Notes: generated from the letters alone by a model not told the origin. Shown: positions 6,699 through 27,701, numbered from the stretch's first letter. The stretch: DNA of 35,857 nucleotides from a virus (UHGV-0063910), one strand, 5' to 3'. Translations and numbers: made by a program.

Positions 6699-7489
6699 TT
6701 ACGCCAGTTGTACAGACACGAACTCATCAGGGTCAGCCAGCAGCATCAGCGGTGCTGACTGAATCATGGTGAACTCACGCGCCGGGTCGCCGGTGGTCAC
6801 CCAGTTTTTCGGGTAACGGGCAGAGGCGTTAATGCCTTCGCGCTGTGCGTCCGCATCCTGAATGCAACCATAGGTGCGCAGACCGCGTGCCTGAGTGTTC
6901 CCCAGCACCATCGTGTTGTCCGGCAGGAAGTTCTTTTTGACGCCGTTTTCCACGTACTGTCCGGAATACACGACGATGGCCACATCGCCATACATTCCCT
7001 TATAAGACACCGCTTTGCCCAGGTCTTTTACCGCTGTCTCCAGCTCGGAATGAGAGCCGCGACGGGTATCCAGCTTCTCCTTGACGGCTTTGAAGGAACG
7101 GAACAGCGCCCAGCCTTTCGGATCAAACACGATGATATTCACCACACCGCTGGCGTTCAGCGCGTAGGCTTCGATATCGTCGGTCGGGTCATACGTGGAC
7201 TTGTCACGCTTGCTCCACTCCGTGCCGCCGGACTGCGTGATGTTATTCGCCTCACTGCGGCCCATATCCACCTCAACCGGATCGAAGGCTTCACCGGTCA
7301 TGGTATATTTGCCCTTAAGCACGGCAGAAACTGCCTGCATCTCTTCGACCTGGGCAATCGCCAGATTTTCATCCAGCATATTCTGCCGAATAATACGGCG
7401 ACGACGGTAAGCCGGGTCAGCCAGGTTCTGCGGATCTTCATCCGGCAGGCGACGCAGGGTCATCTGCGGATTCACCTCATGCTTGGGTT
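6699..7489 (-). pseudogene. E: Major capsid protein E, 3' portion (lambda E codons ~82-341), cut off from its 5' end by the island
   Basis: Translation PKHEVNPQMTLRRLPDEDPQNLADPAYRRRR...DPDEFVSVQLA matches the lambda gpE C-terminal ~260 aa. The reading frame is preceded by a TAA where the island begins. The N-terminal 82 codons are at 18606..18849. Confidence 0.9.
7480..7489. repeat. Left copy of 10-bp direct repeat TGCTTGGGTT flanking the island (putative attL core)
   Basis: Identical 10-mer at 18606..18615. Outer flanks on each side are the two halves of the E reading frame (cctca on the left, tgacata on the right). Confidence 0.8.
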
Positions 7490-7608
7490 ACATGAGTCAA
7501 ATATGAAAGGATGTGAATGATTTTTAGTGATAATATGCTTCAGAATTACTTCCAAAACGAACCGTTGCAATACATCATGCAATACACAGGATATGTAAGG
7601 AGTTATTA

Positions 7609-7794
7609 ATGACTAATTCAGTTGATGTTCAAACCCGTAGAGAAGAATTTGAGCAAGGATATCGAGATGGCTTTCGTTCGGTTCAGGGCAATGTTTTACC
7701 CCCAAAAGCTCCAAGAATTGTACTTGAAACGGGTTCAAAACCTTACGATCAAGGCCATGCTTACGGGGTCAGAGATGCTGGAGGCAAGCGGTAG
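7609..7794 (+). CDS. Small hypothetical protein (61 aa), first gene of the island cargo region
   Basis: ATG at 7609 with AAGGAG 8 nt upstream; AT-rich region; directly upstream of the Abi-like gene. Confidence 0.45.
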   Translation: MTNSVDVQTRREEFEQGYRDGFRSVQGNVLPPKAPRIVLETGSKPYDQGHAYGVRDAGGKR

Positions 7795-7838
7795 CTATCA
7801 CTGGTATAGTCCATAGAAAAAGTGTAAGGGGTCCTAAA

Positions 7839-8600
7839 ATGGATAATTTTCTCAATGAGTTTTCGTCGGATCAGGAACGAGCTAGACATTTAGAGAACTT
7901 ATTAATTAAGGTTGCTCGAGGAGGACCTCGAGATAATAGTGAAAATTATATTTCTCTTAGATCGTACTTTATACAAAACTCTGTATTAAAACTGTTGCTT
8001 CCTGCATTCGTAAGAGAAAACAGAAGCCTAAAAAAATTTTGGGGATTCATACAGCAGAAGTTCCCAACATATAAAGAGCGCGAGTACTTCATCTCAACTG
8101 AATTCACACCGTTATTCGATTATTTCGAAGAGAATCATGCTACGCCTTCGGATGTTCACATAACTGACGGATTAAGAAGCTATGATGAGTGTGGCGTGAA
8201 TGAAGCTTGGGCAAAAGCTCTAGACAGAAGAAACAACGATCCTGAAGGGGCTATTACAGCATCTAGAACATTGCTTGAGACGGTTTGTAAACACATTCTT
8301 GATGATTTAAGTATTACTTATGATAGAAATCTAGACATGAGTGAACTTTATAAACTAACATCCAAAGCACTTAATTTGGCTCCAGATCAGCACGGAGAAC
8401 AGATTTTTAAGCAGATACTTAAAGGTTGCTCATCTGTGGTAAATGGCCTTGGCAATTTACGTAATAAATATGGCGATGCTCATGGCATAGGGAAAAAACC
8501 AATAAAACCTGCTGATCGACATGCTCTTTTAGCTGTTAATCTTGCAGGAAGCATGTCAGTTTTCCTCATTCAAACATGGCAAAACTTGTCAAACAAATAA
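7839..8600 (+). CDS. Abortive-infection-like protein with C-terminal HEPN-type motif (candidate anti-phage cargo)
   Basis: 253-aa ORF with AAGGGG RBS; motif LRNKYGDAHG fits the Rx4-6H HEPN signature. AT-rich composition by eye, at the island edge. Confidence 0.5.
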   Translation: MDNFLNEFSSDQERARHLENLLIKVARGGPRDNSENYISLRSYFIQNSVLKLLLPAFVRENRSLKKFWGFIQQKFPTYKEREYFISTEFTPLFDYFEENHATPSDVHITDGLRSYDECGVNEAWAKALDRRNNDPEGAITASRTLLETVCKHILDDLSITYDRNLDMSELYKLTSKALNLAPDQHGEQIFKQILKGCSSVVNGLGNLRNKYGDAHGIGKKPIKPADRHALLAVNLAGSMSVFLIQTWQNLSNK

Positions 8601-9308
8601 TACCTAATTTTTAACCTCAACTGATTAAATTTCGGTCAAACATCCGTTAGTGAAATACAAGTTGCTATGTAAATACACACCTGCAACTTGTATTACCAAC
8701 CAAGTTTAGCTCCCGATATTACTCATTTCCATTATTTTTCCTTGGCTAGCGCTTCGTCGAACATTTTTACGTGTTATCTTCAAGGTAGATGCTCGCAGAA
8801 ATGATAGTACCACCGATTCGGCGTTGACCATAAGCCAGCAGAACAAGATCCCCTTGGCCGGTTGTATTCGTTACACCACCAAATGCATAGAATGCCTTGT
8901 TATCAGTATCTTGCTTACTCGGCTACCCACAAGATTGTGGGGATAGCATTTGAGCAACGTAGCCTATCGTCACAGAAGCCCCTACTACAAACATCATATT
9001 ACTGGACGCTATACGCGCTCCTGACATTCAGATAGACACAGCAACGCAAATCATTTGCAGCAGACCAGAGCTTTTACTTTCCACAATAACTGGCACAAAT
9101 ACGAATTTCCCGACCCTCAGTAGAGAGCACAAGCGCATCTTTTCCAATATTCTGTTTCCTATGAAAAATACAGAATGTCAGCTCGCGAAATTTACTAGTA
9201 TTCAGATACTTTTCTAATCGAACCTCTCAGTTTAATCGTCATCATTACCTTATAGCTCTGCATTTCGAGTTCCTACAGTAGAGTAAGTGTTCAGTAACCC
9301 AAGTTCAG

Positions 9309-9517
9309 GAGAAAGGAAACGATCATGCCATTTTCAGTCCCAAATAATGCTTTCCATTTCCTTTCTTTTCAGGTGGTGTTTTAAATAAAAACATAAAGTT
9401 ACGGCGAAGAAGAACGGAAACGCCTTAAACCGGAAAATTTCCATAAATAGAGAAAAACTGCGCGCCTTCCGCCCCGTAGTCTGCCGGATTGCCGGAAAGG
9501 ACCCGCCAGCCAGAGCG
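9309..9517. other. Island cos-like site, homologous to the prophage cos
   Basis: About 210 bp alignable with 24828..25037. The ggttacggcgaagaagaacggaaacgccttaaaccggaaaatt block is near-identical. The cosN-like segment (about 9463..9474) differs at several positions and the R1-like hairpin has diverged. Confidence 0.75.
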
Positions 9518-9530
9518 GGCCCTAATTTCA

Positions 9531-9875
9531 TCAACCAATCAACTTATTGCGCCCTTTCAGGGCATTACGCCTGGCGCGTTCAATCTTGAGGCATAACGCC
9601 GCATCAGGTTTTTCCGGTGTGGGTACGAGGCAATAGTTTGATGCTCGCGGGATATTGTTAATCCACTCAACAACCTCGCTTAAATACCAAGCCTTACGCC
9701 CTTCCGTAACCTGCACACGCTCAGGGAACTCTCCACGAGCCTCAAGGTTTAGCAGTGTACGGCGACTCAGGGTTGTAAGTTCCATCACCTGATTCATATC
9801 GACAAGACGCTCGCTTAAGCGCATTTTGTCATCGATATCTAATAGCTCTCGTAGCTGACTATCTCTTTCAATCAT
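9531..9875 (-). CDS. AlpA/MerR-type HTH protein next to the cos-like site (regulator or packaging-specificity factor)
   Basis: 114 aa; segment ELTTLSRRTLLNLEARGEFPERVQV...WYLSEVVEWINN fits the AlpA-family HTH pattern. GAGG RBS; last gene of the E-like/D-like operon. Confidence 0.5.
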   Translation of the reverse strand: MIERDSQLRELLDIDDKMRLSERLVDMNQVMELTTLSRRTLLNLEARGEFPERVQVTEGRKAWYLSEVVEWINNIPRASNYCLVPTPEKPDAALCLKIERARRNALKGRNKLIG

Positions 9876-9884
9876 TCTCGTACC

Positions 9885-10226
9885 TCACACACGTGCCAGC
9901 GGCTGAACAGAAATACCTGAGCCAACAAACGCAGCAACTTTTGCTGATAGTTGTGTTACAGACTCAGGCCAGTTCAGAGCATCAACATTTAAGACGCCGG
10001 TTTTATAAACCTGAGCCTGCGTTTTTGTCGCTGTATCGATTTGTACAGCGGAAACATAAACAGCTTTGCCTGCGCTCGTTCCATCCCATACCACCAGTGC
10101 ACCAGTTGCATCTTCTTGCATCAGTGGCGTAAATGCAGGAATTACCCCTTTATTAGCTGAAAATATCCCCAACGTAGTAACCAGTGCTTCAGTGCCAGCC
10201 ATGAGTTCAGTGTAATGAGTAGCCAT
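9885..10226 (-). CDS. Head decoration protein, lambda gpD-like (island-encoded)
   Basis: 113 aa; aligns with lambda D over TPLM...LVVWDGT..GKAV...YKTG....LNWPE.....AFVGSGIS. AAGGGGGAG RBS; immediately downstream of the E-like gene. Confidence 0.75.
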   Translation of the reverse strand: MATHYTELMAGTEALVTTLGIFSANKGVIPAFTPLMQEDATGALVVWDGTSAGKAVYVSAVQIDTATKTQAQVYKTGVLNVDALNWPESVTQLSAKVAAFVGSGISVQPLARV

Positions 10227-10235
10227 TGCTCCCCC

Positions 10236-11276
10236 TTAACCAATGCGAACGGTAACAAAACGATTGATGCGGGCCGGTATTGGCTGTGGTGCAGAGTGCG
10301 TTTGTACGTACTCAATAGCCGGATCTCCAGGCACAATGTAGTTTTTCGGTGCGAGTTCGGCTTTAGTCAGCCCCATTCGGATTAGCTCCGGATCCTGAAT
10401 GCCACCGTATGCAACGATGCCCTGAAGTGATGTATTGCCAAGAACCATCAAATCAGGATCAAGGAAATATTTTTCTGTTCCGTCCTCGTCGGTATAACGT
10501 CCGCTATACACAACAATAGCCACATCGCCTACGTAACCCTTAAAACTGACGGAATCCCCAAGATTTTTCAGGGCCGTTTCAAGAACGGAATTAGATCCCC
10601 GTCGAGTATCAAGGCAATCTTTTACTGCTTTAAAGGCGCGGTATTTTTTCCATACGTTGCGTCCCATTACGATGATATTTGTAGTCCCTTCGCTGATTTC
10701 TGCGTACTCTTCGATGTCATCATTTGGATCAAATGTTGATAAATCTCTACCGCTCCACTCCGTGCCGCCGGACTGCGTGATAATATTTTGTGGTTTTATA
10801 TTCCAGTCCAGTTCATAACGTTCAATGCCATCGCCCTCAATGATATTTTTCCCCGTTGTGATTGCCTGAACAGCAAGCCATTCAATACGTGCGCGAATGG
10901 CCTGCGCTTGTCTTACCATCGCTCGCTTTATTTTGAAATTGCGTGATGAATATGCATTGAATTGTTCCGGTGATACGCCTGGTTGACGAACGGCTATTTT
11001 ATTTGGGTCTATACTACTTTTTGGCTTCATGTAGCCAGGGCGAATTACTTTTGATTCGTAGCCTTCATCGCGTGATACTTTACTACCAACCATAGGGGAA
11101 CAAAATGCAGCCATCGGGATGTCTGGATCGTCAATAATATCAAGCGCAATATCCCGCGTCTCAAATGTAACGACTCGCTTAAAAAACAGGTTTATAAATA
11201 AAGAGTTAATCTGCCATTGAATATCTTCGGCATTAACAGTCTGTATTAACTCCGCTGGCGAATATAAACCACTCAT
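10236..11276 (-). CDS. Major capsid protein, lambda gpE-like, full length (island-encoded second copy)
   Basis: 346 aa. Conserved blocks ITQSGGTEWS, DTRRGS, GDVAIVVYSG, YG.IQD shared with lambda E and the split prophage E. Divergent from the prophage copy (roughly half of positions differ by eye). Confidence 0.85.
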   Translation of the reverse strand: MSGLYSPAELIQTVNAEDIQWQINSLFINLFFKRVVTFETRDIALDIIDDPDIPMAAFCSPMVGSKVSRDEGYESKVIRPGYMKPKSSIDPNKIAVRQPGVSPEQFNAYSSRNFKIKRAMVRQAQAIRARIEWLAVQAITTGKNIIEGDGIERYELDWNIKPQNIITQSGGTEWSGRDLSTFDPNDDIEEYAEISEGTTNIIVMGRNVWKKYRAFKAVKDCLDTRRGSNSVLETALKNLGDSVSFKGYVGDVAIVVYSGRYTDEDGTEKYFLDPDLMVLGNTSLQGIVAYGGIQDPELIRMGLTKAELAPKNYIVPGDPAIEYVQTHSAPQPIPARINRFVTVRIG

Positions 11277-11461
11277 ATAACCTCTTAATACTTAGTAAAA
11301 GTGTCGTATTAATTTTATCATCTGCCTTGATCGGCATCTTTATGCATTGCTATGCAATATTGTGCAAAGTTTCAATCTTCGTTTATTTATCCGGCGTTAC
11401 GTGTCATTCTGTACAGCGTTACAAGTTCAAAGACATAAATTATTCTCTTTGGTGATGAAAG

Positions 11462-11487
11462 GGTCGGAATATTCCGGCCTTTTTTTT
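11462..11487 (+). terminator. Intrinsic terminator on the plus strand (hairpin + T8)
   Basis: ggtcggaatattccggcc palindrome followed by tttttttt. No plus-strand ORF upstream, so it may end an unannotated small or antisense RNA. Confidence 0.5.
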
Positions 11488-11510
11488 GCGTGGTGTGACG
11501 GACTCAACTG

Positions 11511-11532
11511 ATAAAAGCCGGATTTCTCCGGC
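11511..11532 (-). terminator. Intrinsic terminator for the island replication operon (minus strand)
   Basis: On the minus strand gccggagaaatccggc followed by ttttat, immediately after the ssb-like stop. Confidence 0.5.
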
Positions 11533-11540
11533 CTGTGCGT

Positions 11541-11947
11541 TCAGAATGGAATATTGTCACCGTAGAGATCATCCCCTCCCGCTGGTGGTGTGTTGCCCTG
11601 TGTGCCTGTGGTTTTACGTCTGTTCCCGCCAGGTCGCACCGTTCGCGCACTGATTACGCTGTCTGCGATAACCTGCCAGCGCTGCCGCGTTTCACCGTTC
11701 TGTCCAGTCCACTGGCTCACCTGCATGTTACCCGCCACGCTCAGGAGTTCGCCTTTGTGATGCTTTGCCAGCGTGTCGGCTTGTCTGCCAAACGCCAGGA
11801 CAGATAACCACATCGTCGCCTGACCGTCATCCGACTGCAGGGCAGTGATACCGCCATACGCGCCAGCGTCATGGGGATGCCCTTGCTGGTCTGTTTTGTC
11901 TGCGGGTCGTCCACCAACCTCCCGTAAACTGATATTTGCGCCGTCAT
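11541..11947 (-). pseudogene. ssb: ssb-like gene split over two reading frames (frameshift near 11838..11850)
   Basis: The 11947 frame gives an SSB-like N-terminus (ISVYGRLVDDPQTKQ...). A different frame gives the OB-fold C-half (WLSVLAFG...KGELLSV...WTGQNGETR) and an acidic tail ending DNIPF. Confidence 0.55.
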
Positions 11948-12201
11948 GCTGCCTGCTCTCCGGACTTAATATTGATGGTTGTCACTTCCTCCGCTTCAGC
12001 AATCTCCCGTTCGGTCAGAGTGGCAAAGTTTGCAGCCGCCGTTGTCATGAATGCGCTAATCAGTTCGGGATGTGCTTTCGCGTATCCTTCACCGGCGTTG
12101 CGATCTATTGCCTTAATCGCCACCCTTAGCCAGTGTTCAGCCATATCAAGGGCGCGGTAATGTGGCTTTATATGTTTGTTCAGTTTTCCTGATGTGTGCA
12201 T
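11944..12201 (-). CDS. Hypothetical protein (85 aa), between the ori and the ssb-like gene
   Basis: ORF whose stop overlaps the ssb-like start; weak RBS. Confidence 0.4.
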   Translation of the reverse strand: MHTSGKLNKHIKPHYRALDMAEHWLRVAIKAIDRNAGEGYAKAHPELISAFMTTAAANFATLTEREIAEAEEVTTINIKSGEQAA

Positions 12202-12246
12202 TTTTATTTTTACCCCCTCGTTTAAAAAGTTTTGAAATGTGGTGCA

Positions 12247-12475
12247 CCTCCTCTACCTCTCTACCTAATCATCTTTCAGGTCAGTAATGGCGCGGCTTTC
12301 AGATGGGTAGAGGGCTTTCGGGGCCCTCTACCCATCCTCTACCCGCCCCTCACAAATGACCTTAATCATGGTGGAGGAGGTAGAGGGCTTTTATTTGCCT
12401 TCTACCTGACCCTCTACCTGCTTATCATATTGAATAATATATATTTATTTTCTTTAGGTAGAGGAGGTAGAGGGC
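12247..12475. repeat. Iteron array (about 9 copies of GGTAGAGG/CCTCTACC, both orientations) flanking an AT-rich stretch: putative island origin of replication
   Basis: Iterons at about 12251-12265, 12306-12313, 12325-12344, 12379-12386, 12399-12420, 12457-12473; AT-rich core 12421-12456; immediately 3' of the primase-helicase gene. Confidence 0.75.
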
Positions 12476-12487
12476 TTTTGTCTAAAA

Positions 12488-14239
12488 TTATAAAAACGCG
12501 TCGCAATCCTCTGTTGTTGTCACATTGGTTTGCGTAAGTCCTTTAACCCTGCGCGTTATATATTCACATCCGTAAACTTTCGCCGCTGGCTTCATGGCCT
12601 TGCTGAAATCAGCCACGTTTAGCGGCTTGCTTCTGCCTGCGTATGCCATAAACGCCAGATAGACGCGGTAAAGGCTGTTTCTGGTCGTGTACTTCACGGA
12701 ATCGCCACCGCCACCCATCATCAGGCCGCGCGCTTCCTCCAGAAAATTCAGAAACTGGCAAAACTCAATAACCGGATCCGTCTGTTGCTTTATCGCCAGT
12801 GCTTCTTCACCGTCGCGCTGTTCAATCAACAAATGTCGCGCCTTTTCTGGATCAGCAAAGTTTGCCAGCAATCTGCGGATAATCACGGGGATTTCAGCCG
12901 CGACCTTCTCCGGTAAATCCTTGTCCTTTTCTGCCTCGCTAACGATATTGTCGAAGCGGAAAATTACGCGACGACGTGACACACCTCCGGCCCGTTCGGT
13001 GAATATCATCGGGTTATTGTTGGTAGCCAGCACCACCGCCCTGATTACCTCCGTAAAACGCTTTTCATATTTCGGGTTTATTTCCACGGGGTCGCCGCCC
13101 GTGATTTTCTTGATGCCCGTGCCTTCGCCTGTATATTTCGGCTGGTCAGCCAGGACGATAAGACGTCTCCCGACAACCTGAGCACGCCCACCAGCATCAT
13201 CAAGCGAAGTCATTTCAGCGCTTACCGTGTTCTGTTTCCCTGCCAGAAGGCTGGCTATGTGCGTGAATGTACTCTTTCCGCTCCCGCCGTCTCCGGTGGC
13301 CTCAATAAACATCTGCCAGTCGTACCGGTTCGCCATAATCATGTACAGCGCGGCACATATACGCATCATCTTGCGCGGGTCTTTTCCGGCTGCGTGATCA
13401 AGCCATTTATGAAAGTTTGGCGCGTTGTCGCGGATGTTCTCCCCTGGTGCTGGTGGCGTGTACTCAATGCCGTTGTGCGTGGTGATCCAGTTCTCCGGCG
13501 AGTGCGGGGAAAATTCCCCCGTTTTCAGGTCAAGCACACCATTGGCGAACGGTAGCAAATCACCGGACGGCTCCCCCATGGGGTCGGCAATAACTTTTAA
13601 CGCCTCCACGGCGTTATTAATTGCACGCTTGCTGAATGTGGCCCTGTGCTCTGAATAGATCGCCACCATTTCGCGGCTCAGCTCCATTGTGCTGACCGGA
13701 CACCATACCCCGCCGCGCCATACGTGGACGATTTCACTTTCTGCATGAACACACACACCATCAAAGCGATCGGCAAGTAGTTGTGCACGTTCACTGTCTG
13801 CCATCTGTGAAAGTTGCGCCTTTTGCTTCGTCGGAAGATTAAGCACCAGACTTTCCCCACGCTCGCATTCCTCTTTGAGTCGCGGCAACTGGTCGGATAA
13901 ATCCACGGGGCTGGTGTCAGTAATCCCCGCGTATTCGTGTACGGTCTTCACTCCAGCCACAGCCAATAACGTAACAATCTGCGTCATGCTGTGCTCTGTG
14001 ATATGTCCTGCGCGGTAAACACGCACACACTGACGATCTTCATCAATGATCCGGTAATCGGTGATATTTTTCAGTTGCTCATCAGCCAGCACGACAGGCG
14101 GCACATCGTCGGCGGCAATATGTTTACCCGCCCATTCCTGCCACTCTTTCGCATGGCTCCACGCATCACTACCTGCAAAGATGATTACCTCTGTCAGTCT
14201 GTCGCGTGGCTGTTTTTTTAAGTTCGGTGCCAGTTTCAT
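12488..14239 (-). CDS. Primase-helicase (D5/P4-alpha-like, SF3 helicase with Walker A)
   Basis: 583 aa; Walker A motif GDGGSGKST in the C-terminal half; location between regulatory genes and ori typical of satellite replication modules. Confidence 0.8.
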   Translation of the reverse strand: MKLAPNLKKQPRDRLTEVIIFAGSDAWSHAKEWQEWAGKHIAADDVPPVVLADEQLKNITDYRIIDEDRQCVRVYRAGHITEHSMTQIVTLLAVAGVKTVHEYAGITDTSPVDLSDQLPRLKEECERGESLVLNLPTKQKAQLSQMADSERAQLLADRFDGVCVHAESEIVHVWRGGVWCPVSTMELSREMVAIYSEHRATFSKRAINNAVEALKVIADPMGEPSGDLLPFANGVLDLKTGEFSPHSPENWITTHNGIEYTPPAPGENIRDNAPNFHKWLDHAAGKDPRKMMRICAALYMIMANRYDWQMFIEATGDGGSGKSTFTHIASLLAGKQNTVSAEMTSLDDAGGRAQVVGRRLIVLADQPKYTGEGTGIKKITGGDPVEINPKYEKRFTEVIRAVVLATNNNPMIFTERAGGVSRRRVIFRFDNIVSEAEKDKDLPEKVAAEIPVIIRRLLANFADPEKARHLLIEQRDGEEALAIKQQTDPVIEFCQFLNFLEEARGLMMGGGGDSVKYTTRNSLYRVYLAFMAYAGRSKPLNVADFSKAMKPAAKVYGCEYITRRVKGLTQTNVTTTEDCDAFL

Positions 14240-14535
14240 TTTTTGCCCCTGAATGCGTTAATCATGCTTTTCATTTTCTGGATGTTTCCCCGCGCTTTTT
14301 CCCTGCTGATGGGGTTACTGCGGGGTGCGGCATATACCAGGGAAAAATCACGCCGGAACTGATAAACAGGCATCACGCAGTCATAGCTATACCCCTCACG
14401 GCGGTAAGTGATGCGCCGTTCTGCCACGCCTTTAATCGTTACCGTGCCGCCGTATTTATCGCGGTAAATATCGCCGTTCATAAATTCAGGCCGAGCGGGG
14501 CCGCTGGCAATAAAGCCAGAATTTTTCATTTCCAT
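14236..14535 (-). CDS. Hypothetical protein (99 aa), translationally coupled to primase
   Basis: Stop overlaps the primase ATG (ATGA). Confidence 0.5.
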   Translation of the reverse strand: MEMKNSGFIASGPARPEFMNGDIYRDKYGGTVTIKGVAERRITYRREGYSYDCVMPVYQFRRDFSLVYAAPRSNPISREKARGNIQKMKSMINAFRGKK

Positions 14536-14552
14536 ATTATTTATTCCTCGAC

Positions 14553-14774
14553 TTAACTCGACTTATTTGATAGCAGGGCACTATTTATTGCGTCATTGAG
14601 TTTTTCTGCTGCTTCATCAATAAGTGACAACAGGCCATAAGCAATATTTGCATCTTCATTGTCATTTATGCAATCAAGCCACATATTTAATATTGCTTTT
14701 GCTGAATTATTTAAAGTTAATGAACTTTCTGCACATGCTAACAATTTAAAAAAGACTTCCCGTTCTGTATTCAT
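14553..14774 (-). CDS. Hypothetical small protein (73 aa)
   Basis: ORF in the tightly packed minus-strand operon; AT-rich codons. Confidence 0.4.
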   Translation of the reverse strand: MNTEREVFFKLLACAESSLTLNNSAKAILNMWLDCINDNEDANIAYGLLSLIDEAAEKLNDAINSALLSNKSS

Positions 14775-14966
14775 TTAATCCCCCACCAGCTTACTTTCTT
14801 CCTCAATCAAAAAACTAGCGACACTTCCCGAAAGACGCGCCAGTAGGCTCGCCAGTGCGGATATATCAGCATCTGTAATTTTGTTCGGGTATACCTCAAG
14901 AAGGCGGCAAATAATTTCTGTCTGGTGCGCACGTTCAGCGGCTTCGTGTAATGTAATTTCCTGCAT
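14775..14966 (-). CDS. Hypothetical small protein (63 aa)
   Basis: Abuts neighbouring ORFs in the same operon. Confidence 0.4.
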   Translation of the reverse strand: MQEITLHEAAERAHQTEIICRLLEVYPNKITDADISALASLLARLSGSVASFLIEEESKLVGD

Positions 14967-15151
14967 TAATGCACCTCTTTTAATTCATACACTGCTGAAA
15001 TAATGACTTGTGATAAGCCATATTCTGATGATTCGCTTCTCACCGCAGCAATAGCCGTCTGAACATTAACAGCCTTCACGTTCTGAGCGATACCAATTGT
15101 GTGGCCTAGTGGGTTAACCGCACGAGCAAATACACGGAAGGTTTTAAGCAC
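14966..15151 (-). CDS. Hypothetical small protein (61 aa)
   Basis: Abuts neighbouring ORFs in the same operon. Confidence 0.4.
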   Translation of the reverse strand: MLKTFRVFARAVNPLGHTIGIAQNVKAVNVQTAIAAVRSESSEYGLSQVIISAVYELKEVH

Positions 15152-15508
15152 GGCATACCTCCTGACGAATACGGGCGGCGAATATCATCACGCAGCCAGT
15201 TGGGGATTGTTGGCGGGCTTCCTGTTCGCTGGTGGCCTCGATGTGTATTACGCGTGGTTGTGCGGTGCTCAGGGCGATAAAACGCCAGATGAAATTGTTT
15301 TCGCATTTCTGAATAAACAGCGTGTTTTCTTCACGCCCTTTCCAGAAAGCCGCAGTATAGCCCATCTCCTTAACCATCTTGCGGGCATCAACCAGCGTGT
15401 CAGCGGCAACATGTACCGTAGTTGCTCCATCTGCCATGCGGTCGTGGTGTAGTGCCAGAAAGGTGTATATAAATTTAGGGTGAGTTTGGGTATGCTGTGT
15501 TCCAGCCA
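15144..15508 (-). CDS. Hypothetical protein (121 aa), first gene of the island early operon
   Basis: ATG at 15506-15508 with GAGG RBS. The track ORF upstream of this ATG (to 16058) is antisense to the regulator gene and Ser/Arg-rich, so treated as spurious. Confidence 0.5.
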
Positions 15509-15595
15509 TAATCGTTACCTCGTTTAACGGTTTGGTTAGAAGCCCGGTTAGTGTTCGCGCACTGCCGGGTTTCGTCGTTTTTATGAATCGATCAT

Positions 15596-15699
15596 TGTGA
15601 GATACATAGCGACCATAATGTGAGATATACATTATATTGTGGTGATATACATTGCAAGTGTTTTTATATCTCACTTTTGTGTATAGTGATATACACATA
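15596..15699. promoter_or_regulatory. Divergent control region with 5 copies of a GTGA(G/T)ATA(T)ACA(T) operator-like repeat
   Basis: Copies at about 15596-15608, 15619-15632, 15640-15651, 15665-15674 (inverted), 15687-15699, between the minus-strand operon start and the plus-strand regulator. Confidence 0.55.
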
Positions 15700-15717
15700 A
15701 CAAATTGGTGATTAACT

Positions 15718-16020
15718 ATGTCTGTATACAAAAATGCAAAATCGCAAATGACAACGATCAGGGTTCCCCACGATGTTATGGAGGGCATGGAATCCGTAAA
15801 ACTGGACGGCGAAAGCAACGCCGGATTCATAGTAACCGCCATGCGCGGTGAGATCGCCCGCCGCCAGGCAGAAGGAAGCGGAGAAAATCCCCTCGTGTCT
15901 TCACTGGATGCCTTAGCTAAGGTCGAACAAATCGGCATCAAGGCAGCGGAGGAAATCGGGCAACTCGTAGCCGTCGCTCGTGAAGAACTCCAGCGGCGTA
16001 AAGCCAAAGAATCTGAATAA
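15718..16020 (+). CDS. Putative ribbon-helix-helix-like DNA-binding regulator (candidate island repressor)
   Basis: 100 aa; N-terminus QMTTIRVPHDVMEGMESVKLDGESNAGFIVTAMRGEIARRQ fits a strand-helix-helix layout; immediately downstream of the operator repeats. Confidence 0.4.
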   Translation: MSVYKNAKSQMTTIRVPHDVMEGMESVKLDGESNAGFIVTAMRGEIARRQAEGSGENPLVSSLDALAKVEQIGIKAAEEIGQLVAVAREELQRRKAKESE

Positions 16021-16370
16021 TTAGTATCAGCGCCGTGATGTGAGTAACTACGGCGCATTGCTATGTAAATACTGGCAATAAACAGAAAAGGTAGTTCTAC
16101 TCCGAATAATTTTATCTGACACTACTCCTGAACTAACATGCGCTTATCTTACAGGATATAAATATAAATCCATAAAATCACGATTAAATAAAGTCGCTCC
16201 AAACATAAACCACACCCAACGCTTAACAAGATAGCAACAAACAGGTAAATAACTTGCAGAAATATTTATCGCAAGGATTATCATTATTAATGACAAATCA
16301 CTTTACCAAGTCATTCCCCTCTCTTATCATAAAGAGAAAGTAATAAATAAGTTAAGGGAGTTAGAATGCT

Positions 16371-16907
16371 ATGAATCTAAAAAAAATAGCCACAAACACA
16401 AAAAACAAGATAACAGAAACATTTAATAAACTTATATTGGAGGCATCTAAAACCCCCACGCAAGATGAAATTAAAATACTTGAGAGAAGGAGTAAGAAGT
16501 TTAATTACTCCTTTTTCTCATACGCAGTCACAGGAGCTATAATAGTTTTTTGCTCTCAACCATTAATTAAATACGCAAACCCAATACTTATTTTATTGAG
16601 TGGTCTGTTACTGTCTATCATCATTATCATTCTCAGAATGATTTATATTTCACAAGCGAATGCATCATGGACAACCAAAAAACGCTCACATGTACTAGTT
16701 CATTTTCTTTCTGCATGTTTCATAGCATCAACATTGACGTTGCTATATCAGGCTTACGATAATAACATCACACACAAATTGTACTGTAAAAATATACAAC
16801 AACTTATTGAAAAAAGGATAGAAATAGAAAAAAACATCAGCATATTCAGTGGGATGCAATGCACCCCGGTATATGATTACTCTTTATTTGGATTTAATCT
16901 CTTATAA
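16371..16907 (+). CDS. Small membrane protein (about 3 TM helices), AT-rich cargo
   Basis: 178 aa; hydrophobic stretches FFSYAVTGAIIVFCSQPLI, ILILLSGLLLSIIIIILRMIYI, VLVHFLSACFIASTLTLLY; Lys/Asn/Ile-rich; preceded by GGGAG. Confidence 0.5.
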   Translation: MNLKKIATNTKNKITETFNKLILEASKTPTQDEIKILERRSKKFNYSFFSYAVTGAIIVFCSQPLIKYANPILILLSGLLLSIIIIILRMIYISQANASWTTKKRSHVLVHFLSACFIASTLTLLYQAYDNNITHKLYCKNIQQLIEKRIEIEKNISIFSGMQCTPVYDYSLFGFNLL

Positions 16908-16927
16908 AGAATGTTATTACTGATTTG

Positions 16928-16961
16928 AGTACAAATTCTCAAATCAGTAATTCATAATATT
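16928..16961. terminator. Bidirectional terminator hairpin (13-bp stem) between the membrane-protein gene and alpA
   Basis: ttactgatttgag ... ctcaaatcagtaa inverted repeat with an 8-nt loop and T-rich flanks on both sides. Confidence 0.55.
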
Positions 16962-16976
16962 TTATTCTGAGATAAT

Positions 16977-17213
16977 TTAAACTACCCACTCACCTCGAAT
17001 CCATGCCTGCACTTCTGAAAGACGATATGCAACAGCAGTGGAACCAATCTTGATCCGCTTAGGAAATTTTCCTTCCTTCTCCAGCTTCCAGCGTGTGCTG
17101 TTCGCAAGAGTGGTTAGCTCCCGACATTCTTTCTCACGGATCATTCGGTCAATGTTAGGAATGTACTCCAGACCCTTTTTATCAACAATTGCCATTTTTT
17201 TCATGTTAACCAA
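16977..17213 (-). CDS. alpA: AlpA-family HTH regulator / excisionase-like protein
   Basis: 78 aa; ELTTLANSTRWKLEKEGKFPKRIKIGSTAVAYRLSEVQAWI matches the AlpA pattern; directly downstream of int, overlapping it by 8 nt. Confidence 0.7.
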   Translation of the reverse strand: MVNMKKMAIVDKKGLEYIPNIDRMIREKECRELTTLANSTRWKLEKEGKFPKRIKIGSTAVAYRLSEVQAWIRGEWVV

Positions 17214-18441
17214 CCTTTTGTTTGAGGATTGTCACTTTTGAATCAGCACCTGCGATGCTATTGAGATATGTAGTCCAGAGTTCCAGAGCATCCAGTTTTT
17301 TAGCCATAAACTTACTCCGGTTGTAAACACCTGCCACGCCAGGTAGCGCATGGCCTAACAGTTGTTCTACTACATAAAATTCAACACCGAGATCACTTAG
17401 ATGAGTAGATAGCGTTCTTCTAAGGTCGTGTAGTGACCATTGTTTTTCATGGCCCAAACGTTTACCGATTTTCCCCCCAATCTTGCTTACGCTTTCTCTA
17501 ATTCGCAGACTTCCCAGCACATAACCAGTATGTTTTGTCTCTTCGTGAACATCCGTTACCCACTGTCGTAGAATTTCAGGTACTGGTCTGACGATTTCAA
17601 CACCAGTTTTTGAGTGATCTTTTGGTACAGTCCAAACCCAACTTTCGAGATCCCATTCGCTCCATTCTGATAATCGGGCTTCACTCATTCGACATCCAAA
17701 TACTGTACAAAGCACAAACATTTTTCGCGTGTATTCAGACATTAGTTTTAAATCAGGCTCGACAAAAATTGCCTTCCAGAGCTGGCCGAGTTCGGCTTCA
17801 TCCAGAACCCGATCCCGCTTACCTGCAATCTGCCCCACATCACTCATGCGCAAATCCTTTAAAGCATCACACGTCGCGTACTGGCGTACCCGACAAAAAC
17901 GAAGAGCTAATTTAGTGTCAGAAAAAACATACGCCGCCATAACTGGTGCATTACGTTTAATTCGGTCAAAACAGTCCAGCCATTCATATAGGTGAGTGTC
18001 ATTTACGGGCAAATGACCGATATAGGGAAAGATATGCTTTCGAAATCTGCCAAGCGTTACAGCATGAGTTTTACGACGCACCTTACAGTAATTTTCATAC
18101 CAGTAATTTAGTGCATCCTCCACTGTGACCGGCTTTAAGCGTTCTTCAGCCTGAATCTTAATCTGGATACGCGGATCACGTTTGTCAGCCAACCAACCAC
18201 GGCACTCGTCGCGCTTTTCCCTTGCCTGTTTGAGTGACATATCAGGATATTTACCCAACGTTAGCCAGACCGGAGCAGCCCGGCCACCTGCTAACCTGTA
18301 GAAGAAAACAAAGCTTACAGCCCCTTTAGTACTCACACGAATAGAAAGCCCCTTTCCATCAGCAATGGTGATCTGCTTTTCTCTGGGTTTCCCCAGATAT
18401 CCTTTAAGCGCTTTGTCGCTCAGTTTGTTCTCGCCAGCCAT
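17206..18441 (-). CDS. int: Tyrosine integrase (P4-type)
   Basis: C-terminal catalytic region with HDLRRT...LGH...Y residues; sits next to the right repeat. Start placed at ATG 18439-18441 (MAGENKLSDK...); the track ORF extends to 18492. Confidence 0.85.
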   Translation of the reverse strand: MAGENKLSDKALKGYLGKPREKQITIADGKGLSIRVSTKGAVSFVFFYRLAGGRAAPVWLTLGKYPDMSLKQAREKRDECRGWLADKRDPRIQIKIQAEERLKPVTVEDALNYWYENYCKVRRKTHAVTLGRFRKHIFPYIGHLPVNDTHLYEWLDCFDRIKRNAPVMAAYVFSDTKLALRFCRVRQYATCDALKDLRMSDVGQIAGKRDRVLDEAELGQLWKAIFVEPDLKLMSEYTRKMFVLCTVFGCRMSEARLSEWSEWDLESWVWTVPKDHSKTGVEIVRPVPEILRQWVTDVHEETKHTGYVLGSLRIRESVSKIGGKIGKRLGHEKQWSLHDLRRTLSTHLSDLGVEFYVVEQLLGHALPGVAGVYNRSKFMAKKLDALELWTTYLNSIAGADSKVTILKQKVG

Positions 18442-18605
18442 TTTTAGCCCCAAAAAGCAATACAAGCTGCAATACAGAGATGATTGCAACACACAGATAA
18501 CGAGGAAAATTCAGTGAAAGCACCAGATAAACTTATTCTTTATTATCAAAAGATTAAGTGTAAAAACCAGCAACTACACGAAAGCCTCAGAAAGCCATGC
18601 TAAGT

Positions 18606-18615
18606 GCTTGGGTTT
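18606..18615. repeat. Right copy of 10-bp direct repeat TGCTTGGGTT (putative attR core)
   Basis: Identical to 7480..7489; lies inside the codons KPKH of the E 5' fragment. Confidence 0.8.
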
Positions 18616-18849
18616 GACATAACCCGGCGTAAATTCAGAGGTGGAGCCGCCACGGGATCGGATAACCTCACCGGAAACAATCGGCGAAACGTACAGCGCC
18701 ATGTTTACCAGTCCCGGAATTTGTGAGAGATAGACTTTTTCCGTGGTGAAAGGATAGGTTTCACGGAAAAACAGGCGCAGAAACAGCGGATCGAACTTAA
18801 AGTGATGCTGGGTCGATGCCAGTAATTCTGCAGTTGTATATACAGACAT
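18606..18849 (-). pseudogene. E: Major capsid protein E, 5' portion (codons 1-~82), reads into island DNA
   Basis: MSVYTTAELLASTQHHFKFDPLFLRLFFRETYPFTTEKVYLSQIPGLVNMALYVSPIVSGEVIRSRGGSTSEFTPGYVKPKH matches the lambda gpE N-terminus, then continues as LAWLSEAFV-stop in island sequence (track ORF ends at 18574). Confidence 0.9.
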
Positions 18850-26847: not shown

Positions 26848-27263
26848 GACTTCTCCTTACTCCCTCCGTTATTGAATTATAGCGCACTGCATTTTACTGC
26901 ATTTGAGAGATTTGACCACTTCAATCACAAAATGCTTATCTGCAGCAACAAGATTCATAGCCATACGACTATGGTGATTACCTTTTGTCTGGAAAACTGA
27001 CCATTCCACGAAGATCAGATAGGTCTATAGAATCTTGGTTTGTCATAGCGTTCGCCTTACTTTGAGATGAACCTTTGCTGCATAGGAGATCAGCCCGTCA
27101 AGGCTCACCAGCACTAACTGACTACTCAAAGGCTCATTCCAAAGGGTTTGGTTCGACGTGGTTGAGTGCGCTCCGGTGCGCGGTGAAATACCTGTACAAA
27201 AATGCCCCGCATCTGCGAGGCATTTTCCTGAAAGTCACGTATAAAATTTCAGTGAAATTAAAA

Positions 27264-27701
27264 TTATTTTAAGCACTGCGTCCTGATGTATTCCTGCAGG
27301 TAGTTAACCTGCGCGGTTATCCTGTCGATTCCACTTCGGAGACGGTAATAATTGAGTTCAGCATCTGCTGTAAGTCTTGGGCTTTCTCCATCGCCCATGC
27401 TGCTGGCTCCGGTCGTTGACTTTGCACAGGTGGCGGAGACTTGCAGGCGCTTACGACCAACAGAAACATCAGCACGGAGACTTTCGATAGTCGCGTTAGC
27501 ATCAGCAAGCTCCTTTGTGTATCTGGCGTCGAGTTCTGCTACATCACGTTGACGCTTCTGCATGTCAGCGATTGTGGATGTGGCTTTATCGCGCTGCTCT
27601 TTGTAGGCGATGGCGTTATCACGGTAATGATTAACAGCCCATGACAGGCAGACGATGATGCAGATAACCAGAGCGGAGATAATCGCGGTTACTCTGCTCA
27701 T
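27264..27701 (-). CDS. Rz: Spanin inner-membrane subunit Rz
   Basis: 145-aa [40 protein letters not shown]... matches lambda Rz. Confidence 0.9.
27317..27508 (-). CDS. Rz1: Spanin outer-membrane lipoprotein Rz1 (embedded in +1 frame within Rz)
   Basis: Embedded ORF with lipobox LVVSAC followed by a Pro-rich segment (SPPPVQ). True start may be an internal Met. Confidence 0.6.

Follow-up and report, generated by a model that had tools for sequence, protein, structure and literature searches.

Phage satellites carry cargo genes in variable slots, and several described systems are close to the one reported here. The helper-embedded phage-inducible chromosomal islands (HE-PICIs), including the E:Phage_cap_E_80 group, were described by Tommasini, Mageeney & Williams 2023 (PMC10111431), and the consulted part of that report gives them the zone order of integration, dynamic ('Bro'), replication and late, with capsid and decoration genes of their own. 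Satellite and prophage defence hotspots have been documented in P4 (psu-int) and P2 (Rousset et al. 2022, PMC9122126), and one E. coli PICI is known to confer additional superinfection immunity on helper lysogens, the responsible gene being unknown (PMC11773190). Here, we analysed a viral DNA of 35,857 nucleotides (UHGV-0063910), called the window at its full length, and a gene at 16371-16907 in it for a 178-amino-acid (aa) predicted inner-membrane protein, called the target, that is carried by an HE-PICI.

The target lies in the alpA-proximal slot of the island, and this slot is a variable, defence-flavoured cargo hotspot. The best explanation in our judgment is that the target is HE-PICI cargo encoding a stand-alone, envelope-acting anti-phage protein, with superinfection exclusion as its most likely mechanism, and we give this about an even chance. 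What is new is the unannotated membrane-protein family and the alpA-proximal slot of the E-site HE-PICIs as a hotspot. Neither the element itself nor the idea of defence hotspots on satellites is new.

The slot was delimited by comparison with other E. coli islands. The int-alpA segment is present in 179 of 5,426 complete E. coli genomes, and 68 of the 179 also have the target segment, chromosomal in every case. Alignment with the sister islands places the right breakpoint at ~16984, in the alpA stop codon, and the left one at 15299 or 15539, so the variable or dynamic zone is drawn at 15300-16984. The integrase is 99% identical in the sister islands for which the identity was computed.

Behind this near-identical integrase, at least six different cargos occupy the slot. 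Besides the target, they are a DUF2971 protein with a SWIM protein (islands L002 and L003), a 467-aa unknown protein (L004), a CAP12/Pycsar-type TIR-domain protein (L053; Pfam, 1.2e-33), a HicB-like small protein with a 241-aa unknown protein (L054), and a YlcI/YnfO gene with a putAbiC protein directly after it (L055; 2.8e-16). All the alternative cargos have 30–35% GC. The TIR-domain protein and putAbiC are known anti-phage genes, and PADLOC gives weak candidate matches for the DUF2971 and SWIM proteins. Since the content varies in this way behind the integrase, with 15300/15540-16984 replaced by unrelated low-GC genes and the target present in 68 of the 179 genomes, the earlier note's suggestion of an acquired accessory gene is well supported.

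Cargo also varies at the far, att-proximal end of the island, which makes this a second hotspot. In the window it carries a gene for a 253-aa AbiJ-like protein (7839-8600, plus strand; Pfam Abi_C, 1.7e-23; PADLOC AbiJ, 2.4e-22) within a block of 38–40% GC, and the island of E. coli 14EC020 (L001) has a PD-T4-2/NsnA-like pair of DUF262 and HEPN genes there.

The alpA-proximal slot is alike to the P4 and P2 hotspots (PMC9122126) and to the PICI-borne immune systems in that a fixed slot between core genes of near-identical elements holds differing low-GC content that includes anti-phage genes. It differs from P4 and P2 in being on an HE-PICI within a prophage, in being flanked by alpA and the YlcI/Icd regulatory region, and in that the target belongs to no PADLOC system. 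Compared with the E:Phage_cap_E_80 islands as covered in the consulted part of PMC10111431, the target is placed at the start of the dynamic zone, directly past the integration zone. That part presents the dynamic zone as one of Bro-network DNA-binding proteins and immunity RNAs and makes no mention of membrane or defence cargo, whereas here the zone holds swappable low-GC cargo.

The family of the target is a recurrent slot occupant and not a one-off acquisition. Homologues with 32–36% identity are found in the same slot and orientation in the HE-PICIs of Phytobacter, Kosakonia and Citrobacter (L014, L046 and L049) and in a metagenomic virus contig (L047). The L014 and L047 islands are 88–91% identical to the window in Int and 92–95% in AlpA; conserved Int and AlpA with a diverged slot homologue fit a gene that evolves fast or is frequently exchanged. 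In both of them, a co-oriented YlcI/YnfO open reading frame (ORF) of 59–61 aa lies 30–67 nt upstream. The order of small regulator, transmembrane (TM) cargo and convergent alpA is thus conserved in three HE-PICI lineages.

Elsewhere, the family is found in other mobile and chromosomal contexts. In Enterobacter prophages, the homologue P0020 (162 aa) is the sole reverse-strand gene between a Mu-F-like head gene and the scaffold and capsid genes, which is a classic moron position. In Pseudomonas mandelii (L005, 8303-10447 of AZQQ01000096), a member is 49 bp downstream of a retron type XI reverse transcriptase (RT)-protease gene (PADLOC, 1.4e-174); both have 38.7% GC against 51–62% in the flanks, and Fic and DUF4238 genes flank the block. 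Another member is beside a partial integrase gene and umuDC, and yet another is between a type VI secretion system (T6SS) cluster and an HNH gene near smpB (L050). The GC content of each member is far below that of its locus, for example 26.9% versus 48.6% and 28.7% versus 52.4%.

No conserved partner gene was found across 12 or more contexts examined, so the target protein is self-sufficient. The P. mandelii neighbourhood suggested a retron partner. Type XI retrons have an RT fused to a trypsin-like protease, with no TM partner mentioned by Mestre et al. 2020. We rejected the family as a retron type XI accessory protein, because the profile hidden Markov model (HMM), which recovers all seven of seven positive controls, detects no family member near any of 25 RT-protease relatives.

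The target ORF runs on the plus strand from an ATG start to a TAA stop. Its GC content is 31.5% (31.8% at third codon positions), compared with 49.2% for the whole window and 52.1%, 43.9%, 44.9% and 52.6% for the YlcI-like gene, alpA, int and the primase gene, respectively. The 350-nt leader of the target (16021-16370) and its 69-nt 3′ spacer are low as well with 34% and 22% GC, and for this reason we draw the AT-rich block at about 16060-16976. This cassette proper of leader, ORF and terminator has about 31% GC.

The gene was correctly described from the start as an AT-rich one for a 178-aa protein with about three TM helices. The ORF is intact, its 31.5% GC contrasts with 44–53% in the neighbours, and Kyte-Doolittle analysis gives three hydrophobic segments at residues of about 47–66, 70–95 and 106–126. 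Its placement between the island regulator and alpA/int likewise holds, with the YlcI/YnfO gene at 15718-16020 on the plus strand upstream, and with alpA at 16977-17213 and int at 17206-18492 facing it from downstream.

The expression signals are candidates read from the sequence. A Shine-Dalgarno element, tAAGGGAG, is at 16353-16360, ~10 nt 5′ of the ATG. A candidate σ70 promoter, TTTACC-17-TATCAT, is at 16302-16330, ~40 nt 5′ of the start, and is a consensus match only (9 of 12 positions). An Rfam scan found no structured RNA in the leader, and the leaders of the three island lineages gave no convincing alignment. Opposite the leader, a TTG-started ORF for a very hydrophobic 50-aa peptide (16144-16296, minus strand) is probably a chance ORF of AT-rich DNA.

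Downstream, a 14-bp perfect inverted repeat (16916-16929/16938-16951) begins 8 nt past the target stop, where the target and alpA converge. Its extended fold has −23.7 kcal/mol with a z score of −5.96, and none of 200 shuffled sequences is equally stable. The hairpin at 16916-16951 is probably a terminator common to the target and alpA transcripts. A terminator scanner assigns it to the minus strand, the direction of alpA. On the plus-strand side, the U-rich run is interrupted and begins a few bases past the stem, and the stem has only four G-C pairs. Thus, of the strong bidirectional terminator claimed in the earlier note, the stable hairpin is borne out and the bidirectionality is plausible, but 'strong' is somewhat generous. 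The hairpin belongs to the swapped cassette, since homology with the sister islands begins only at ~16985.

Apart from one patch, purifying selection acts on the E. coli alleles. All 24 E. coli-type copies collected, representing 14 distinct DNA alleles, keep the 537-nt frame intact, so the target is a real gene rather than a chance AT-rich ORF. There are two allele classes with 88% aa identity that differ almost solely in residues 82–116, which correspond to 16615-16716 in the window and span the TM2 end, the cytoplasmic loop and the TM3 start. In this patch pS is 0.32 and pN/pS is 1.07, against 0.05–0.11 and 0.11–0.18 outside it. The patch looks like a mosaic segment recombined from a more distant allele, and is possibly under relaxed or diversifying selection; the gene as a whole is functional.

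The family is small and without annotation. A word-indexed protein search returned the E. coli copies alone, with identity of at least 87%. An exhaustive phmmer search of 1.84 billion representatives found 11 proteins at E≤1e-3, of 148–178 aa and 24–36% identity, and a profile search added more. They come from E. coli, E. marmotae, Enterobacter, Citrobacter, Phytobacter/Kosakonia, Ewingella, Pantoea and Pseudomonas, and all are annotated as hypothetical. A scan of GTDB species representatives gave only three loci with a family member, so the family is rare.

Conservation in the family is concentrated in a few residues. In the 25-sequence alignments, P71, C139, Q143, F159 and C164 are invariant, and F48 and P64 are also invariant in one of them (A3); G78 and K67 are near-invariant. 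A QPLxK[YF]xNP motif lies between TM1 and TM2, and a C-x3-Q...F-x4-C block lies toward the C terminus. The Cys pair is present in all 25 members with a spacing of 25–26 residues. The lowest column entropies are those of loop 1 (0.89 bits) and of the C-terminal domain (1.76 bits). The highest, at 2.3–2.55 bits, are those of the N terminus, loop 2 and TM3, with 2.3–2.4 bits for the N terminus and loop 2.

Structure prediction was made with AlphaFold2 from the family alignment, as the single-sequence model was poor (pLDDT 59.7) and was replaced. The alignment-based model is all-helical with pLDDT of 82.5 and has helices at 3–26, 31–68, 71–94, 101–147 and 152–161. Loop 2 has a mean charge of +2.5/−0 across the family and the C-terminal domain is charge-balanced. 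The positive-inside rule, together with the invariant Cys pair and the model, argues for an N-in/C-out topology. Cys139 and Cys164 would then probably form a periplasmic disulfide, and the most conserved parts, which are the loop 1 motif and the C-terminal domain with the Cys pair, would be on the periplasmic face.

These features suggest a mechanism at the envelope. The target, whose variable slot in the satellite is bounded by alpA and the divergent regulatory region, would most likely be expressed while the island is quiescent, because it is co-oriented with YlcI/YnfO and opposite to the int-alpA and replication operons. Its product would have a lysine-rich cytoplasmic N terminus followed by three TM helices, and a helical C-terminal domain of ~50 residues placed in the periplasm and stapled by the predicted Cys139-Cys164 disulfide. 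At the inner membrane, the protein would act on the periplasmic face to stop incoming phages from delivering their genomes, thereby protecting the satellite-plus-helper lysogen.

In a rough division, superinfection exclusion is a possibility well short of even, abortive infection is unlikely, and the remainder goes to non-defence roles. The fullest form of the proposal is more tentative still, and we rather doubt it. It holds that the target founds a new single-gene family of periplasm-acting exclusion proteins, which the satellite would deploy from its maintenance transcript to keep the genomes of competing phages out of the satellite-plus-helper lysogen. The stapled domain and the QPLxK[YF]xNP loop would be the working surface, and their partner would be an entry factor in the host inner membrane or else the phage ejection machinery. 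An exclusion role has precedent in the superinfection immunity conferred by a PICI (PMC11773190).

The closest likeness among known exclusion proteins is to P22 SieA. Both are multi-TM products of a single gene, with 164 aa for SieA and 178 aa for the target, and sieA has 33.7% GC against 47.1% for P22. The P22 sieA gene is on the reverse strand with its own annotated promoter; the target has a candidate promoter and P0020 is likewise a reverse-strand moron in a late operon. By prediction, the target shares with sieA the character of a low-GC, self-contained moron for a small polytopic inner-membrane protein, having three TM segments, a candidate promoter, a Shine-Dalgarno element and a terminator. 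It differs from SieA in the TM layout and has no detectable sequence relationship with it.

The gene arrangement also recalls phage λ. In its cI-rexA-rexB operon, exclusion genes are co-transcribed with the maintenance regulator and include one for a small polytopic membrane protein. Similarly, the target is downstream of and co-oriented with a small regulator gene, and divergent from the lytic or replication operon. Unlike rexAB, it has no RexA-like partner and no homology in PHROGs, and a 350-nt leader with the candidate promoter separates it from the regulator gene.

Several points weigh against an anti-phage role. Guilt by location is circumstantial, several of the slot occupants are themselves proteins of unknown function, and some family members are at undistinguished chromosomal spots, such as the one in Ewingella, which has a DUF2756 gene on one side and a LysR regulator gene on the other. 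The quiescent expression, the topology, the disulfide and the anti-phage activity are all predictions. The preference for exclusion over abortive infection has two sole grounds, namely the conservation facing the periplasm and the lack of a sensor partner.

The homology searches weigh on the same side. The target has no homology to known exclusion or abortive-infection proteins or defence models in PADLOC, PHROGs, Pfam and NCBIfam, and the family as a whole has no match in Pfam, NCBIfam, PHROG, PADLOC or PDB sequences. Homology to P22 SieA or SieB was rejected, as hhalign of the family profile A4 against SieA gave a probability of 0.14% and both were below 1%. Fold searches with the target model returned generic helical hairpins only. 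By tblastn, the E. coli, Enterobacter and Phytobacter members had no match in 50,697 phage records, and the E. coli member had none in 72,556 plasmid records.

Sub-threshold matches give no lead either. The Pfam scan of the target has DUF443 alone, below the cut-off (E 0.0012), and no Pfam family is common to the 25 members. The DUF4231 and Saf_2TM matches are each sub-threshold in a single member and are not reproduced across the family. The earlier note had proposed a superinfection-exclusion or abortive-infection membrane protein. Such a protein is plausible, and the location speaks for it, with TIR, putAbiC and AbiJ-like genes as slot or far-end company, but no homology to known Sie or Abi proteins or to defence models was found.

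One other explanation is that the target is cargo for a conflict or fitness trait not involving phages, and we regard it as unlikely. The product could be an orphan immunity protein that counters a toxin acting in the membrane or periplasm, for instance a T6SS effector or a pore-forming bacteriocin, or it could be an envelope factor of lysogenic conversion. The immunity genes of pore-forming colicins are of similar size, multi-TM and low in GC, and are in reverse orientation with their own terminator. The target may be likened to them in all these respects, and a conserved surface facing the periplasm would suit the neutralising of an incoming toxin. Moreover, homologues are found near a pyocin-S gene (L006), an Imm42 gene (L015) and the T6SS cluster with the HNH gene (L050).

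However, none of the 25 members matches any Pfam family of colicin or other immunity proteins, and no cognate pore-forming toxin gene adjoins any member examined. The pyocin of L006, which lies 3.4 kb from the homologue, belongs to the nuclease type and is accompanied by a small gene of its own. The best-conserved context of the family is the cargo slots of satellites and prophages rather than toxin loci.

Abortive infection by a membrane effector is the main rival to exclusion, though it too is unlikely. The protein would stay inert until a phage cue reaches its cytoplasmic N-terminal helices, and would then oligomerise, depolarise the inner membrane and kill the cell. Membrane-depolarising effectors of this kind are exemplified by RexB and by the small TM effectors of the CBASS, retron and Thoeris systems. 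The occupants of Abi type in the slot and at the far end (TIR, putAbiC and AbiJ-like) are consistent with it, as is the P. mandelii homologue lying 49 bp past the retron XI RT-protease gene with the same GC of 38.7%. Also in its favour, the allele-variable patch of residues 82–116 is predicted to face the cytoplasm.

Yet there is neither a sensor partner nor a conserved neighbour, and a RexAB-like pairing was found in none of the 12 or more contexts. The retron link is not repeated in the 25 RT-protease relatives, and the sub-threshold DUF4231 and Saf_2TM matches are from single members. The conserved features are predicted to be toward the periplasm and not the cytoplasm. This last point and the lack of a partner are what favour exclusion.

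A role in the satellite life cycle is improbable. It could be in the timing of helper lysis, in packaging or release, or in induction, or the target could be the toxin of an addiction pair with the YlcI/YnfO protein, which is ribbon-helix-helix-like. The order of YlcI/YnfO then TM gene in the three diverged HE-PICI lineages, with gaps of only 30–67 nt in L014 and L047, and the recurrence of the family in one island lineage are in its favour. Against it, ~60% of the islands with the same int and alpA lack the target and carry unrelated cargo instead, so the target is dispensable for the life cycle.

The pairing with YlcI/YnfO is likewise loose. L004 and L053 have a YlcI gene but no TM gene, L055 has one beside other cargo, L005, L007, L019 and L050 have the TM gene but no YlcI, and the gap in the window is 350 nt. 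An obligate type II toxin-antitoxin pair was rejected by this co-occurrence, the genes being found apart. A holin was also rejected, as the target is away from lysis genes; the P0020 prophage has a holin and a lysozyme of its own elsewhere, with Phage_holin_3_3 and the lysozyme ~6 kb away from P0020.

Finally, the target might be an ORF in decay, or one without function, in AT-rich DNA gained by horizontal transfer, as the missing annotation and domain and the ease with which such DNA yields hydrophobic Ile/Leu/Lys/Asn-rich ORFs might suggest. This is very improbable and effectively refuted by the 24 copies and 14 alleles all being intact with low pN/pS (0.11–0.2), by homologues of 24–36% identity that keep the invariant residues, the length and the architecture across two bacterial orders, and by the confident alignment-based model.

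The island that carries the target is an HE-PICI of the published E:Phage_cap_E_80 group. It is ~11 kb long (about 7476-18573) and is inserted at about codon 82 of the λ-E-type major capsid gene, which it splits, in a lambdoid prophage of E. coli. The N-terminal fragment of about 82 codons (18574-18849, minus strand) ends after GYVKPKH at the right island junction, and the C-terminal fragment (6699-7475, minus strand) is at the left junction and covers positions 94–328 of the Phage_cap_E profile. The insertion is thus near codon 80, and int, alpA and the primase gene are co-oriented with the interrupted capsid gene on the minus strand, as expected for the group. No direct repeats of at least 10 nt that could be att sites were found at the island ends in the stretches tested.

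All four zones are present, with Int and AlpA, the dynamic zone, primase and single-stranded DNA-binding protein (SSB), and late capsid genes. The minus strand of the island holds int, alpA, an Icd-like gene, small ORFs, a DUF4222 gene, a D5_N/DUF5906 primase gene, the SSB gene, the island's own capsid and decoration genes and an AlpA-like gene; the SSB, major capsid and head decoration genes were read from the RefSeq annotation of the 99.8%-identical island L001. The tyrosine integrase at 17206-18492 (minus strand) matches Pfam Phage_integrase, and RefSeq calls a shorter form of 411 aa. The alpA gene at 16977-17213 (minus strand; Phage_AlpA, E 3e-15) is the conserved right flank of the slot. 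A second gene of the AlpA family (9531-9875, minus strand; Pfam, 2.1e-09) follows the capsid and decoration genes of the island and encodes 114 aa (127 aa in relatives), so that the island has two AlpA paralogues.

Upstream of the target, the YlcI/YnfO-family gene at 15718-16020 encodes a small regulator of 100 aa. The helper prophage outside the island has its own ylcI, beside nohD (27083-27277 and 27639-27932 in L001 cover this ylcI and an iss lipoprotein moron for increased serum survival), and the YlcI/YnfO family is therefore common to helper and satellite.

The dynamic zone also has a candidate RNA. A symR-like Rfam match at 15504-15576 on the plus strand (35.3 bits, below the gathering score of 61; E 7e-4) is antisense to the 5′ untranslated region and the start codon of the Icd-like gene. 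Of the whole dynamic zone, only the segment around it, 15467-15574 (103–108 nt), is shared with the diverged HE-PICIs L014 and L047, with 80–88% conservation. It may be an antisense immunity RNA like C4/icd of P1 or CI of P4. Equally, its conservation may just mirror the conserved N terminus of the Icd-like protein (MAGTQHTQTHPKF).

The dynamic zone of HE-PICIs, which the consulted part of PMC10111431 discusses as regulatory with its Bro and immunity-RNA elements, behaves on its alpA-proximal side as a cargo hotspot here. A function in exclusion or abortive infection is plausible, and this location strengthens the case for it. If the protein does not exclude phages, the target would be an ordinary uncharacterised moron. 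If it does, it would be a compact single-gene envelope defence that PADLOC, Pfam, PHROGs and NCBIfam all miss, and would put a concrete gene behind the superinfection immunity that helper lysogens can gain from PICIs. The slot would then be usable as bait for the discovery of further systems.

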